Positions 21,101 through 27,100 of a DNA stretch of 64,000 bases are shown one piece after another. The position numbers were made by a program. Position 1 is the stretch's first letter. Each line of letters begins with the position of its first letter. Origin of the DNA: an uncultured Candidatus Binatia bacterium (GTDB lineage Bacteria > Desulfobacterota > Binatia > UBA9968 > JAJDTQ01); NCBI GenBank assembly GCA_965204235.1, contig OZ241979.1, positions 2,530,216 to 2,594,215 of the forward strand, written 5' to 3'.

Positions 21101-24100
21101 GAAGCACCATACGGGCCCACGGCCTGCGGATCGTGGCGGACCTGCTGGAGTCCGCGCCGCAGCTCATCGCCAACGAGTCCGCATGGCGGGAGCCGTGGAA
21201 GCGTTCCAAGATCGAGCAGATCAGCATGCTGCTCCAGGGAGCGTTGGCCGCGGAACACAAGGTCGGCATCAAGATGAACGTCATGGAGTCGGACCTGGAG
21301 AAGGTCATCGACCTGATCCCCAGCCTGACCGCGCCCACGGTGGCGACCCTCTACCAGACCCCGGCCCTGGGCGGCAAGAAATGGTTTTCGCTGGAAAGCG
21401 TCATCGCCGAGGACGTGGTCCGCGAGCTCATCCCCGAGTTGACCCGCAACGGCGCCGTGGGCGTCATCGAGTATCCGCTGAACAAGGTCATCTGACCCCG
21501 GACGCTCATCAGCGCCTCGAAATCTTCCGGGGTTTCGGTAGCTGTTTCTCGAACCGTTCGCTCTGTTGGACTGGCCGGGCCGTCTGCCCGATCAGTCGTC
21601 GATCAGGTCCAGCATGTCGTCGTGGATCTGGGGCCACGGTTGCGCAAGGTCGATTCCTCGCGCTCGTATGGAAAAGCCTTCCAGGCAGACATCCGCCCGT
21701 ACAGGTTCGGTGACCACCGGATAGAGCAAGATTCCTTCATGCTGGGGTCCGGGGTCGGCGGTCGCCTCACGGTTTCGCAGGTAAGCAAGAAGCTGGTACA
21801 GGTGAGCTGACCAGAGCTTCTTTCCACCGTAGCGGCCGCTCAAGGCCTTCGTATACCATTTGGTATCCAGCACGATCCGCCTAGCGGGTGACTCAAGGAG
21901 TACATCGCACTCCATCTGCGGGATCATCGAGCGTTGGTCTTCCCGAGTCCCTTGGCAGTTCCAGAGAATTTTACGCTTTTGATTCACACGAAAGTCGCGC
22001 CGCTCGCGACGATAGAATTCAGTAACGAAATCCTCGAACAAGGACCACATGCGCTTGCGTCTTCTTGGAAGGTCCAGGAACTTTGTTTCGCCCGTCCTTT
22101 CGTTAACGAGCAGGCTATCGTGAATCAACTCGCATACCGACATCAGGAAGCGATAGACGTGGCGATTACGGTCGAGTTGCACTTGCTGAAAAAGACGGTG
22201 ATTCAGGCGCAAGAGACGGATGCCTTCGAGCTTGTCGTACACCGTCCTGATTTCCGATCTCACCTCGGTGTCCATGTTCGGGAGTTTCAGAAGGGCGCCG
22301 AGTGTAGAGCGCAGGATACGGTTGTGAAGCACGTCTCGGGAAAGTTCCTCGAATTCGCAGGTCGTCCGGCCCCGTGTCCGCAACGCGCGTTTGGCCATCT
22401 CACCTATCATCAGCTTGCCGCGAACCCCGGCGAGGTCTTCCCGGACGTCCTGGTACCCTTGGTCGATGCCGGCACGGATCAGGCGAGCCGTCCCTTGGGC
22501 GAGGACCTTGCCAAGCAGGTGATGTGTCTCTTGCAGTCCCTCGATCTCTTCCAACCGGACCACGCCCAGCTCCTCGACGTGCCGCCAGGCGTAGCACAGG
22601 AGGTAATAGATGTTGGCGACGGGAATGGTCATCACCTCAGCGCTTTCAGCAATTCGTCAACGTGTGCGGGTCGGTCGAACCAGTACTCGCGCAGGAGTGG
22701 CTCGATCTGTGTATCGATGATCGTGTGGAACCAGACTTCGTCCGTTGTGTCCGTTGTGTCATCGGGGACAAAATAGCTGTGACCGATCTGGAAGCCTGGT
22801 CCGAGATCCTTGTCGTCCCGGATGCGTCGGTTGATCTCGGACATCTCTTTCACGATCCGATCGATGAGCAGGGAATCGACGCCCGCATCCGTCAGGTATT
22901 TCTTGAACTTCTCCAACTTCTCCGTATGGTACGCAGGTTCCAGGGTCTCGAACGCAAACCGGCGCCGCAGTGCATAGTCCACCATCGCGAGGGATCGGTC
23001 CGCGGTGTTCATCAAACCGAGGATATGCACGTTATCCGGCACGAAGAAGCGCTCGCTTCCGTGGGTGTAGGTCAACTGGAGGGCAAAATCAGGTTTTCGC
23101 TTGTCCGCTTCGATGAGCATGAGCAGCTCCCCGAAGATTCTGGAGAGGTTTCCCCGGTTGATCTCGTCGATGATGAAGACGAACGGCGTGTCCGGATCCT
23201 TCTCGGCCCGTTTGCAAAACTCGAAGAAGACACCGTTCTTGATGGTAAAGCCGCCGTTCTCCGTCGGTCTCCAGCCTTGGACGAAGTCTTCGTAAGCGTA
23301 TGATTGATGAAACTGCACCATCTCCACGGGACGCGAGTCCTTGCGTCCGATCAGACACCACGCGATCCGATGGGCAATGAAGGTCTTGCCGACACCCGGG
23401 GATCCTTGCAGGATCAGGTTCTTGCGATTCGCAAGCGAGTCCAGGATACGTTTGAACTGGCGGTCATCGACGAAGACGTCTTCGAGTGCTGAGTCGATGC
23501 CGTAAATAATTTCAGACTCGTTCCGACCGTCGATCTTTCCCTCGATAAGTCCGAACACGAACCGAAGCCAACGCTTGTAAGGAGAAAAACGAGTCAGTGT
23601 TTTGATGGCGAAACGCCAGTCGTCAGGAAGGTCGATCGGCTGCTGACATCGATACCAGTTCACTTTTCGGATGTTTCGAAATTCCGGCCGGTCTGGGTCG
23701 TGTAGGTAATCTCCGGTTACCTTTCCCCACCCGAGTATGGTGTTCTTACCCTTCTTCGCGATGAGGATGTCACCAATTTGAACCTCGTGTGTAAATTCCC
23801 ATAGAGCGAGAGACGTCTGGAATGGTTTGTCCCCGAACCCGTGCTTGGTCAACGCTTTCTCGAGGTCTTCTCTGCAGGCGTATTCTTTGAGGTCTCCGAT
23901 TTCGTCCCATCCCATTGCGGCGAGGCTTTCTTCCACGAAATCGTTCCAATATCGTCCGCCTGCACCCGCAGCCATCAACCAGACGTTCGCCTTGCCGAAA
24001 CGTTCTTGAAACCAGGCTTCGGCCTGTTCGTCTTTCAACCAGATACCCTGAGGCTGTAGTCCGGCAACAAATGGCTGTAGTCCGGCAACAAACTTGTCCA

Positions 24101-27100
24101 CTTCTTCCGGATTCCGGAAGTGGCAACGGTATCCTATCCAGTTTTCTTGTTCTTCTGGCGTTGCTTGATGCCATTCAGACGCAGCTATCTGGCTTCGAGT
24201 TTCTGGTAGAATAGCATCTAATTGTTCGGTACTCAGACCCAGCGTATTCATCAGCCGGATGCCGTTCAATCTAAACTCCAAGCCTTTCTCACGGCTACTT
24301 AAACCAATGTGGAGGACAATTATGGTTTGTCCCCCAATTCGGAAGCCCCAGTTATTTCCTATAGGAACACCAGACAGAATACGACGGGCTGCGCTCAACC
24401 GCTGGAATTGTTCAGCTACTCCAAATGTATTGGCCATTTCTTTCATTTCTTCGGCATTTGGCATTTCTCGCGTCCTCCCTCCCTTGTCTGTTCCCGGACC
24501 CTGTTGCTCCCTCTCCTACCTTACCCACACAAAAGCCGGAAGAGCCTCAAATGACACCTACTCCAAGACCCTTCATACGTCAGAGCGCGGGGATCCTGAA
24601 GGGACGAGTTCTTCCTGCACGATGGAGGGTCGCCTGGCCAGCAGAGCCAGCAGGACCCGTGCCGGTCCTTCCGGACGGCGGCGGCCCTGTTCCCAATTCT
24701 TGAGCGTGCCGAGGGATACCCCGATACTCTTGGCAAAGTTGGGCTGCGAAAGGCCCGTCTTCCCGCGTATCGTGGCGACGTCGGGTTCCGGTAACTCGGG
24801 CGCCGTGACTTCATGCACGACAAAACCGTCCCGTTGGCCGTCCAGATACGCGCGTGCATCATCCAGCCCGGCCATGATCTTCTTGAAAGCCTTGCTCATG
24901 TGAGCCTCCTGTATTCTTCGACCATTCGCTTCGCAGCGGTGATCAATGCGGCTCGCTCCCTGGGGTTGAGATCCGCTTTTTCGTTCTTGGCGAGGACGGT
25001 GAGCAAAAACACCGGAAGGTTCTCGCCGGCGAACTATTCGGGTGTCTCGACGACTGTTTGCCAGTGGGTCCACATATAGGCGTCAATGGCGTCTGTCCCG
25101 GGATGATGCTTCCCGTTCGCCGACCTCCACTCATCTACCCGCCCATCCATGCGTCGCTCGCGTGCAGTTGCGTCCAGGGGATCAGTTTTCCGTCGGAGCG
25201 GGACTGCGTCTGGTCGCCGCCGTAGGCCACGACCAACTCGCAGTGGCCTGCGGTTCCGGCCAGGTGCCGCTTGACCCGCTTGCCGCCGTCGAACAGGTGG
25301 GCGGACGCGGTGGCGCCGGACTTGGCTTCCACCAGGGTGACGCCGGTGGGGTGCTCGATCAGGAGGTCGGACTCTGCGCCGTCGTGGTTGCGGTAGAACG
25401 AGCAGCCGCGGGGTTCGCCCCGGTTCAAGCGGTGCTTGACGATCTCGGACACGACCCAGGTCTCGAAGATGGCGCCGCGCAGTGGGTGCGAGCGCAACTG
25501 CTCCGGTGTGCGGATGCCCAGGAGCCAGCAGACGAGGCCGGTGTCGTAGAAGTGGAGCTTGGGCATTCGCACCAGGCGTCGGCGGAGGTTGGCGTGGAAC
25601 GGCGGCAGGCGGAACGCCAGATAGCCGGTCTCCAGGATGCTGAGCCACTTCTTGGCGGTGGGTTGCGAGACGGCGCAGTCGTCCGCCAGCGACGAGTAGT
25701 TCAGCAACTGTGCGGTGCGGCCGGCGCACAGCTCCACGAAGCGCTGGAACGTGGTCAGGTCGCCCACGTTGGCAATGGCGCGCACGTCGCGCTCCACGTA
25801 GGTGGTCGCGTATGCGCCGAGCCAGTCCGCGGGGTCGAGGCCGTGGTCGAGTATGCGCGGGTAGCCTCCGGTGAGCAGCGTCTCCTCCAGGGTCTCGGGG
25901 TGCTCGGGGAAGCGCACTACCTCGCTCCATGCCAGGGGCAGCAGGTGGTGCACAGCGGTCCGGCCTGCGAGGGACTGGCTGACGGACGCGAGCAGGGCAA
26001 GGTTCTGCGAACCCGTCAGGATCCAGCGCCCGGGCGCCGGGTCGTTGTCGATGACGCCTTGCAGGTAGGAGAGCAGGTCCGGCGCGCGGTGCACCTCGTC
26101 GATGACGGCGCCGTCGGGGAGTTCGGCAAGGAAGGCGCGGGGGTCCTCTCGGGCGAACCGGCGCACGTCCAGTGCCTCGAGGGAGAGGTAGCGGCGCCGC
26201 GGGAACAGCGTGCGGCAGAGGGTGGACTTCCCGCTCTGCCGCGGTCCGGTGACGGTGACGGCCGGGAAGCTCTGCGCCGCCCTCCTGATTCGTGGGGCCA
26301 AGTCGCGCTCGACGGTCATACCGGAAACCTACCTGATTTTCGGGTAATTGAAAATCTGTTTTTGATTTACCCGATGCGTATCACTTGTCCGCATCGGTAT
26401 GCGCCGCCTCCGCCGGCCCCACCTTGAACTGCTTGCCGGCCGTGCCATAATGGTTCGATGCACGCGGGTTCCGACTCCATGCGCGGGGAGGGGGCGGCGT
26501 CCGGTCCGGGGGAGTTCCGTTCCGGTTTCGTGGCCATACTGGGGCGGCCCAACGTGGGTAAGTCCACCCTGCTGAACCGGATCCTGGGGGAGAAGGTCGC
26601 CATCGTCTCGCCCAAGCCGCAGACCACCCGGAACCGGATCATGGGTATCAAGACCCTGGCGGGCGGGCAGATGATGTTGCTGGACACGCCGGGGATCCAT
26701 CGGGCCCGGTCGCTGCTCAACCGGCGCATGGTGGATGTGGCCAAGCGGTCGGTGAGCGACGTGGACGCGGTGGTGTGGGTGGTGGACGCCCGCGGCGGCG
26801 TGCGCGCGGACGACGAGGACATCGCCGGCATCGTCGCCGGCAGCCGCCGGCCCGCCCTGGTGGCGCTGAACAAGATCGACGCGGTGGCCAAGGGACGGCT
26901 GTTGCCGGTCATGGCGCGTTGCGCCGAGTTGCTGCCGGACCGGGAGATCGTTCCCGTCAGCGCCCGCACCGGCGAGAACGTCCCCCTGCTGGCGGAGCAG
27001 GTCCTCGGTCGGCTCCCGCCCGGCCCGCGCTGCTTCCCGGAGGACGAGTTGACCGACCGGACGGAACGGTTCATCGCCGGGGAAGTGGTCCGGGAGAAGG

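Follow-up and report, generated by a model that had tools for sequence, protein, structure and literature searches.

What kind of system is encoded by the low-GC (guanine-plus-cytosine) interval 21592-24464 of the window, i.e. the whole 64,000-nucleotide stretch from an uncultured Candidatus Binatia bacterium that was analyzed here, and what could the N-terminal region of its McrB protein recognize? The interval consists of exactly two minus-strand open reading frames (ORFs), mcrB and mcrC, and the start of mcrC overlaps the stop of mcrB by 1 or 4 nt. The features by which McrBC is recognized, an McrB-type AAA+ GTPase and a PD-(D/E)xK nuclease McrC encoded directly downstream, were both found at the sequence level. 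Judging from the sequence, the two genes were horizontally acquired and probably constitute a McrBC-type system for GTP-dependent Type IV (modification-dependent) restriction, with an N-terminal McrB region of two domains. In place of the DUF3578 reader of Escherichia coli McrB, the N-terminal region contains two other domains: a rare distal domain, here termed domain X, and a motor-proximal domain of the Pfam family DUF8426, for which an EVE/YTH-like fold was predicted.

Composition and catalytic subunits of the mcrBC island

An earlier note on this DNA had described a low-GC mcrBC island and had taken its composition as a sign of horizontal acquisition. The coordinates and base composition agreed with our own values: the GC content was 52.8% for mcrB and 57.6% for mcrC, whereas the left flank reached 68.1% and the right flank 68.3%. 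In 1-kb windows (mean of 68.3%, standard deviation (SD) of 3.1%) the island lay 3.4 to 5.7 SD under the rest of the window and formed the deepest GC trough of the 64 kb. The GC content at third codon positions (GC3) was 0.63 in mcrB and 0.70 in mcrC, versus 0.92 in the neighboring hisG and 0.91 in the neighboring DUF4143 gene; within mcrB, it rose from 0.43 in the first part over 0.59 to 0.75. Composition strongly backed acquisition by horizontal transfer. The insertion site lies between hisG and a block formed by the gene for a DUF4143 ATPase and era. No tRNA gene or integrase marking the island was found near it, nor were there notable direct or inverted repeats at its flanks, and a scan for promoters and terminators yielded nothing beyond shuffled expectation.

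Residues 320-601 of McrB matched the NCBIfam McrB model with 302 bits. The full-length equivalog cut-off of 637 was missed because the N-terminal domain differs and the match covers the motor only. The same residues matched the structures of E. coli McrB with E values of 2e-88 (PDB 6ut6) and ~1e-88 (7vsr and 6hz4). McrC matched Pfam McrBC (E 5e-32), and its alignment with E. coli McrC (6hz4_M, E 4e-61) spanned the entire protein, the METDI...VDAKYY motif being kept. All catalytic motifs of the GTPase motor and of McrC are intact, and both subunits are close to those of E. coli K-12 McrBC.

DUF8426, a candidate reader next to the motor

The earlier note had held that the N-terminal ~300 residues of McrB were not of the E. 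coli type and had likened a segment of them to EVE/PUA-like readers of modified bases. Pfam searches with residues 1-330 gave no match to MrcB_N/DUF3578 (PF12102), EVE, YTH, or other families even at E<=10, in agreement with the first of these statements, and separate searches with residues 1-158 and 138-322 at the same threshold were likewise empty. Most homologues retrieved by database search were 461-489 residues long and started about at residue 135 of this McrB. Thus, the N terminus consists of a family-wide motor-proximal domain and an extra distal domain. As an example, P0005 starts with MPNAEDIRLKDEQAEAWF; the McrB studied here starts with MPNAEE, followed by ~130 residues and then by IWLKDEQAEAWF. 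The idea of one ~300-residue reader therefore needed correction: the EVE/PUA-like segment stood, but two separate domains (~320 residues) are present instead of a single one, and the domain at residues 1-135 had been overlooked.

The motor-proximal domain was identified by precomputed annotation, which placed PF28530 on the database protein P0003 (100% identical to residues 184-610) and on all homologues. PF28530 is named DUF8426 (PF28529 is McrB_lid). Because PF28530 is not in our local Pfam copy, the assignment combines the precomputed annotation with a profile of our own (A2). This profile retrieved 170 proteins, and all 120 of those listed carried PF28530. A literature search for DUF8426 returned no papers that mention it. 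No match to a different, already characterized McrB N-terminal family emerged, the family found being itself uncharacterized. Among related loci of GTDB representative genomes, 50 of 80 encoded DUF8426, spread over Proteobacteria, Binatia, Acidobacteria, Gemmatimonadota, Verrucomicrobia, Spirochaetes, Bacillota, Actinobacteria, Bacteroidota, and one archaeal metagenome-assembled genome. It was furthermore present on 20 plasmids, where the proteins were labeled only "AAA family ATPase" or "DUF3578 domain-containing protein".

Structure prediction from a 66-sequence alignment yielded a model of DUF8426 with a predicted local distance difference test score (pLDDT) of 92.2 and a predicted TM-score (pTM) of 0.87. 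The model showed the EVE/YTH-like fold of the PUA superfamily, which supported the fold proposed in the earlier note. The domain spans residues ~145-310, and the peptide singled out in that note covers the model strands E94-99 and E103-110. In the list of fold matches, the solved PUA-like N-domains of McrB from Staphylothermus marinus (6.2) and Thermococcus gammatolerans (5.8) ranked behind nearer matches, and E. coli McrB-N was absent among the 60 matches listed. Conserved in the 66 sequences were W162, W173, F176, W222, F224, D232, K237, Y253, R266, and W270, with K237 as the sole invariant column. The aromatic residues W162, W173, W222, F224, Y253, and W270 together with K237 and R266 would fit a base-flipping pocket. 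The base specificity (5-methylcytosine (5mC)/5-hydroxymethylcytosine (5hmC), N6-methyladenine (6mA), or other) is not derivable from the fold, because structural neighbors read either 5mC/5hmC (VcaM4I, THYN1) or N6-methyladenosine (m6A) (YTH, T. gammatolerans McrB). A sub-threshold resemblance to E. coli McrB-N (SDTNEPHAQWQFSSDI versus the DUF8426 consensus, 0.1 bits) was not significant and was rejected.

We favor a role of DUF8426 as a reader over a role as an adaptor. DUF8426 is the sole N-terminal domain in many McrB proteins, e.g. P0002, P0004, and P0005 (471-477 residues). It is also fused alone to an HNH nuclease (P0044 and P0046) and to a NucS-like PD-(D/E)xK nuclease in the PADLOC candidate PDC-S02. 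Proven enzymes, VcaM4I among them, are likewise built as fusions of a reader to a nuclease (PMC7897488).

Several observations weigh against this interpretation of the locus. The McrC score against the NCBIfam McrC model (320 bits) is slightly below the equivalog cut-off of 338. DUF8426 is without a sequence-level link to EVE or YTH, and its fold rests on the predicted structure: hidden Markov models (HMMs) of the DUF8426 alignment (A2 and A3) matched PDB sequences in the trailing GTPase only, hhalign of the alignment against two Pfam-EVE (PF01878) domains gave a probability of 0.8%, and the match of P0044 to PDB sequences was confined to its HNH part. The pocket residues were placed by conservation and order of secondary structure elements, not by superposition. 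Finally, DUF8426 adjoins the motor even when an EVE, Mrr_N, MrcB_N, or 270-residue domain is present upstream, and its role may be generic rather than modification-specific.

The last point leads to the strongest competing explanation, according to which DUF8426 is a constant motor-side adaptor (a generic DNA clamp or an element for autoinhibition or assembly) and the variable distal domain, here domain X, sets the specificity. In relatives, one or more variable distal domains precede DUF8426, which is followed by the GTPase; the upstream position is taken by EVE, Mrr_N, MrcB_N, PF28527, or a conserved 270-residue domain, and P0015, P0043, and L016 contain a genuine Pfam-EVE domain and DUF8426 side by side as distinct domains. 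Gating would also have a precedent, as the EVE domain and linker of VcaM4I gate the nuclease too (PMC7897488). An adaptor is nevertheless difficult to reconcile with the many McrB proteins in which no other N-terminal domain exists and with the fusions of DUF8426 alone to HNH or PD-(D/E)xK nucleases. Furthermore, conserved Trp, Tyr, Lys, and Arg residues like those of DUF8426 are typically found in PUA readers that flip bases, and the ratio of nonsynonymous to synonymous substitution rates (dN/dS) in the comparison with the metagenomic relative L001 (see below) is higher for DUF8426 (0.50) than for the motor (0.24), as expected for a specificity surface. We therefore regard the adaptor role as unlikely.

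The ~270-residue domain upstream of DUF8426 was conserved in the closest GTDB relatives (L003 (7083-9425), L005, L006, L007, L009, L012, L014, and L015), with the consensus ...AAE.WKQRCLL.GGSLF.EE.LWT..NF..L..HFVE.PD... It had no match in the local Pfam copy.

With DUF8426 as the putative reader, the system would work as follows. According to published work on the E. coli and T. gammatolerans proteins, GTP-bound hexamers of McrB take up McrC, which stimulates GTP hydrolysis; the complex translocates DNA, with McrC as the cleaving subunit (PMC7680126, PMC11090510). The mechanism of motor and nuclease is presumed to be the same as in E. coli K-12 McrBC. By analogy, the McrB described here would assemble into GTP-bound hexamers, into which McrC would insert and boost hydrolysis. 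DNA would then be translocated, and McrC would cut when complexes anchored at modified sites stall. The PUA barrel of DUF8426 may flip a modified base into a hydrophobic pocket, as deduced from VcaM4I, THYN1, and the McrB of T. gammatolerans. The conserved W173, W222, and Y253 are candidates for the pocket walls, and K237 and R266 for backbone contacts. Domain X would be a folded module, maintained by selection, that was taken over from NucS-like defense nucleases of the single-chain type, and its most likely function would be that of a second nucleic acid contact that narrows or broadens target choice.

EVE and YTH domains often read RNA, and a modified-RNA target or co-option for a purpose other than defense, such as has been suggested for CoCoNuT systems and demonstrated for Staphylococcus aureus PcdA, has to be considered as well. 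The GTPase possesses the classical NxxD signature, whereas the CoCoNuT clade has NxD, and coiled coils are lacking (PMC11090510). In contrast to PcdA, the Walker motifs are intact. Translational coupling links the gene to a canonical mcrC, the product of which has an intact nuclease site, and the gene lies among defense-candidate genes. These features render an RNA target or co-option very improbable.

Domain X, the start of mcrB, and the history of the island

Domain X was rare. When 1.84 billion representatives were searched exhaustively with its HMM profile, 163 clusters were obtained. In most of the matches listed, among them nearly all proteins of ~330-370 residues and a few longer ones, the domain is located at the C terminus; the only one among the matches listed in which it is N-terminal with sequence after it was cluster P0007, which represents the McrB type described here. 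End-to-end alignments with the C-terminal ~145 residues of P0012, P0134, and P0135 showed 39-48% identity. The carriers of ~350 residues contain a NucS_C PD-(D/E)xK domain and match the PADLOC candidate PDC-S11 (E 1e-66), this match spanning their N-terminal ~200 residues; one further carrier is a KAP NTPase that matches PADLOC PDC-S20. As DUF8426 occurs in PDC-S02 and domain X together with PDC-S11, both N-terminal domains of this McrB are also found on single-chain candidate nucleases. The NucS-like carriers of domain X are stand-alone genes that do not lie beside mcrBC, and domain X was found on McrB in none of the 80 GTDB loci and on no plasmid. A local fusion, by which domain X would have been derived through deletion from an upstream nuclease gene, was considered and found to be unsupported, because the carriers are stand-alone and domain X was absent from the 80 GTDB loci and from plasmids.

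Fold comparison of domain X pointed to the class of the MotA C-terminal domain, YjbR, and YdhG, with weak scores, ~10% identity, and a model built from 6 sequences. It is a rather doubtful proposition that domain X represents an unrecognized family of nucleic acid or modification sensors, used by the PDC-S11 nucleases and, in this system uniquely, stacked before the EVE-like reader on an McrB motor, which would make the system a dual-reader McrBC. If true, recognition of the target would require either two marks or one mark in combination with a sequence or structure.

The cassette was compared with L001, a metagenomic relative in which it occupies the same site between era/DUF4143 and hisG. 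The gene order there is der, era, DUF4143 fragment, HTH (helix-turn-helix) gene, mcrB, mcrC, hisG, hisI, cutA, ubiD, thiC. DNA identity was 98.4% on the era/der side and averaged 95.2% over the mcrBC-hisG-thiC block. Since the site is the same and the flanks are near-identical, the cassette predates the split from L001, and thus its acquisition was not recent.

Within the cassette, identity was mosaic. The 5' third of mcrB, which encodes domain X and DUF8426 (23570-24464), was only 69-85% identical to L001 at the DNA level as compared with 92-97% for the motor and ~98% for the flanks, as would be expected if recombination had exchanged a specificity module. For domain X, amino acid identity was 78% and the synonymous substitution rate (dS) was 0.52; the corresponding values were 71% and 0.34 for DUF8426 and 96.8% and 0.07 for the motor. 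In mcrC, a block of 150 nt (21926-22072) was 74% identical, whereas adjacent blocks were 95-100% and the 3' end 100% identical. We infer from these alignments that the reader-encoding part of mcrB may have been replaced by recombination. The mosaic divergence suggests that both subunits have been subject to recombination or to diversifying selection. Should the dual-reader idea apply, the mosaic 5' third of mcrB would reflect a continuing exchange of specificity modules inside a single species-level lineage.

Domain X is under purifying selection (dN/dS of 0.22 at the above dS versus L001) and is very probably translated. The 610-residue reading is backed by a GGAGGA ribosome-binding site ~9 nt before the ATG at 24464, by conservation, and by dN/dS. 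The 78-nt leader is conserved with L001, and homologues start with MPNAED, MPNQD, or MPNDEE and thereby resemble the start of this McrB. In the public entry (P0003, NCBI/ENA), the protein comprises 427 residues and is annotated from M184, a start that is probably wrong. That this annotation is right after all, with the first ~135-183 codons an untranslated remnant of a neighboring nuclease gene and the true start downstream, e.g. at M184, would agree with the internal start also picked by the gene caller in L001 and with a GC3 of the first part much below that of the rest of mcrB, but it is hardly credible in view of the strong ribosome-binding site and conserved leader, the frame that stays open in three diverged copies (the window, P0001, and L001/P0007), the purifying selection in the questioned region, the absence of Met between residues 10 and 164, and the fact that a protein started at M184 would lack the first strand and the first helix of DUF8426 together with its conserved W162 and W173.

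Features, neighboring genes, and comparison with known systems

The features of the island are compiled in Table 1. The duplication of FVAGLQP at the end of domain X is missing in L001 and P0007 and is present in a slightly diverged form in P0001.

Table 1. Features of the mcrBC island and of the gene upstream of it (window coordinates; aa, amino acid residues)
Feature	Position	Strand	Description
mcrB	22632..24464	minus	610-aa ORF: domain X, EVE-like DUF8426, and McrB GTPase
mcrC	21592..22635	minus	347 aa: DUF2357-type N-domain and PD-(D/E)xK nuclease
mcrB leader with ribosome-binding site	24465..24542	minus	conserved with L001; L001 homology stops at 24542
Domain X, aa 1-135	24060..24464	minus	rare module common to C terminus of NucS-like (PADLOC PDC-S11) nucleases
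Perfect 21-bp tandem duplication, FVAGLQP twice (aa 125-138)	24052..24092	minus	domain X/linker junction
EVE/YTH-like PUA-fold domain (predicted), aa ~145-310, Pfam DUF8426 (PF28530)	23535..24032	minus	probable modified-base reader
Peptide of the earlier note, IGDILIAKKGKNTILGWGKVTGDYLHDPDRPEF, McrB aa 230-262	23679..23777	minus	GD motif, two barrel strands (model), K237, Y253
McrB AAA+ GTPase motor, aa 321-610	22635..23504	minus	Pfam AAA_5, E 4e-23
Walker A GSPGVGKT	23382-23405 (aa 354-361)	minus	motif in McrB
Walker B FIIDEIN	23157-23177 (aa 430-436)	minus	motif in McrB
NxxD signature MNTAD, GTP-specific	22998-23012 (aa 485-489)	minus	motif in McrB
McrC catalytic D...D-x-K at MECDVLL and VLDTKWY	21853-21915	minus	
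HTH gene, MqsA/NadS-like, ~109 aa from ATG at 24902	24573..24902	minus	co-oriented, directly upstream of mcrB

The region upstream of mcrB (24543-25132) is a variable slot. In the window, it is occupied by the MqsA/NadS-like HTH gene without a toxin partner; the product matched Pfam HTH_31 and MqsA_antitoxin as well as NCBIfam MqsA-family and NadS models, each under the cut-off, and the GC3 of the gene (0.60) is low like that of the island. In L001, the same slot contains an unrelated HigA-like HTH gene (L001 7095-7517), and the two genomes become homologous again 78 nt ahead of the mcrB ATG. The HTH protein might conceivably act as a controller of mcrBC.

Further upstream, an AAA_14 plus DUF4143 ATPase (25135-26319, minus strand) corresponds to the PADLOC candidate PDC-S01 (E 6e-101) and has a native-like GC3 of 0.91. 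The gene is full-length here; in L001, a C-terminal fragment of 181 residues is left. A dispersed intergenic repeat of 50-120 nt, the copies of which are 84-95% identical, was found at 30059-30177, 34802-34851, 43665-43720, and 53006-53097, and the copy in L001 (6340-6462) is located at the point at which the DUF4143 gene is truncated. A second low-GC patch (51463-53227, plus strand; 58.7%, -3.1 SD) lies just past rplM and rpsI and encodes the two-gene PADLOC candidate PDC-M56, consisting of an ABC/OLD-type ATPase (E 1e-136) and a partner of 198 residues (E 5e-36).

The locus leaves the general understanding of McrBC unchanged. McrB proteins fused to EVE-like domains have been known before and are common, and it is usual for further distal domains to precede DUF8426. 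EVE-McrB has been described as the commonest EVE architecture in defense, with nearly 300 genera (PMC7641849), and PUA/EVE-type readers as among the commonest throughout the McrB family (PMC10602043). Only the particular distal domain, domain X, is rare here. What is new lies at the level of annotation. The uncharacterized DUF8426 adjoins the motor in numerous McrB homologues from various bacterial phyla and from plasmids, which are mostly labeled just "AAA family ATPase"; it receives a predicted EVE/YTH-like fold and a testable base-flipping hypothesis. A modular rule emerges for the McrB N termini of this clade, i.e. a variable distal module followed by DUF8426 and the motor, and a rare domain apparently borrowed from PDC-S11-type nucleases is added. 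The system is a candidate for a new modification-dependent restriction specificity.

The system is like E. coli K-12 McrBC (6ut6, 6hz4, 7vsr) in its two-gene operon, its GTPase motifs, and the D...D-x-K site of McrC. It differs from it in that the E. coli McrB has a single DUF3578/MrcB_N reader, whereas domain X and the EVE-like DUF8426 are found here. When compared with the McrB proteins of S. marinus (6n0s) and T. gammatolerans (YTH-like, 6p0g), DUF8426 appears structurally nearer to classical EVE/YTH domains than to either of these N-domains. Members of the EVE-McrB class (Bell et al. 2020, PMC7641849) differ as well, because DUF8426 is without a Pfam EVE match and is often located downstream of a true Pfam-EVE domain. 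Domain X resembles the C-terminal DNA-binding domain of T4 MotA and the YjbR/YdhG/YgaC fold class weakly, which does not amount to membership.

VcaM4I (EVE-HNH, PDB 6yex), with the pocket residues P24, W82, and Y130 (PMC7897488), is 16% identical to DUF8426 without profile-level similarity, and its 5mC/5hmC specificity cannot be transferred to this domain. It is a single-chain, NTP (nucleoside triphosphate)-independent enzyme, whereas motor and nuclease are separate in the system described here. In PADLOC PDC-S02, a NucS-like nuclease, the N-terminal ~120 residues of the profiles match DUF8426 (E 1e-16). PDC-S02 and PDC-S11 combine reader and nuclease in a single chain without a motor, whereas in the present system the corresponding modules stand in tandem on the GTPase and the nuclease is a separate subunit.

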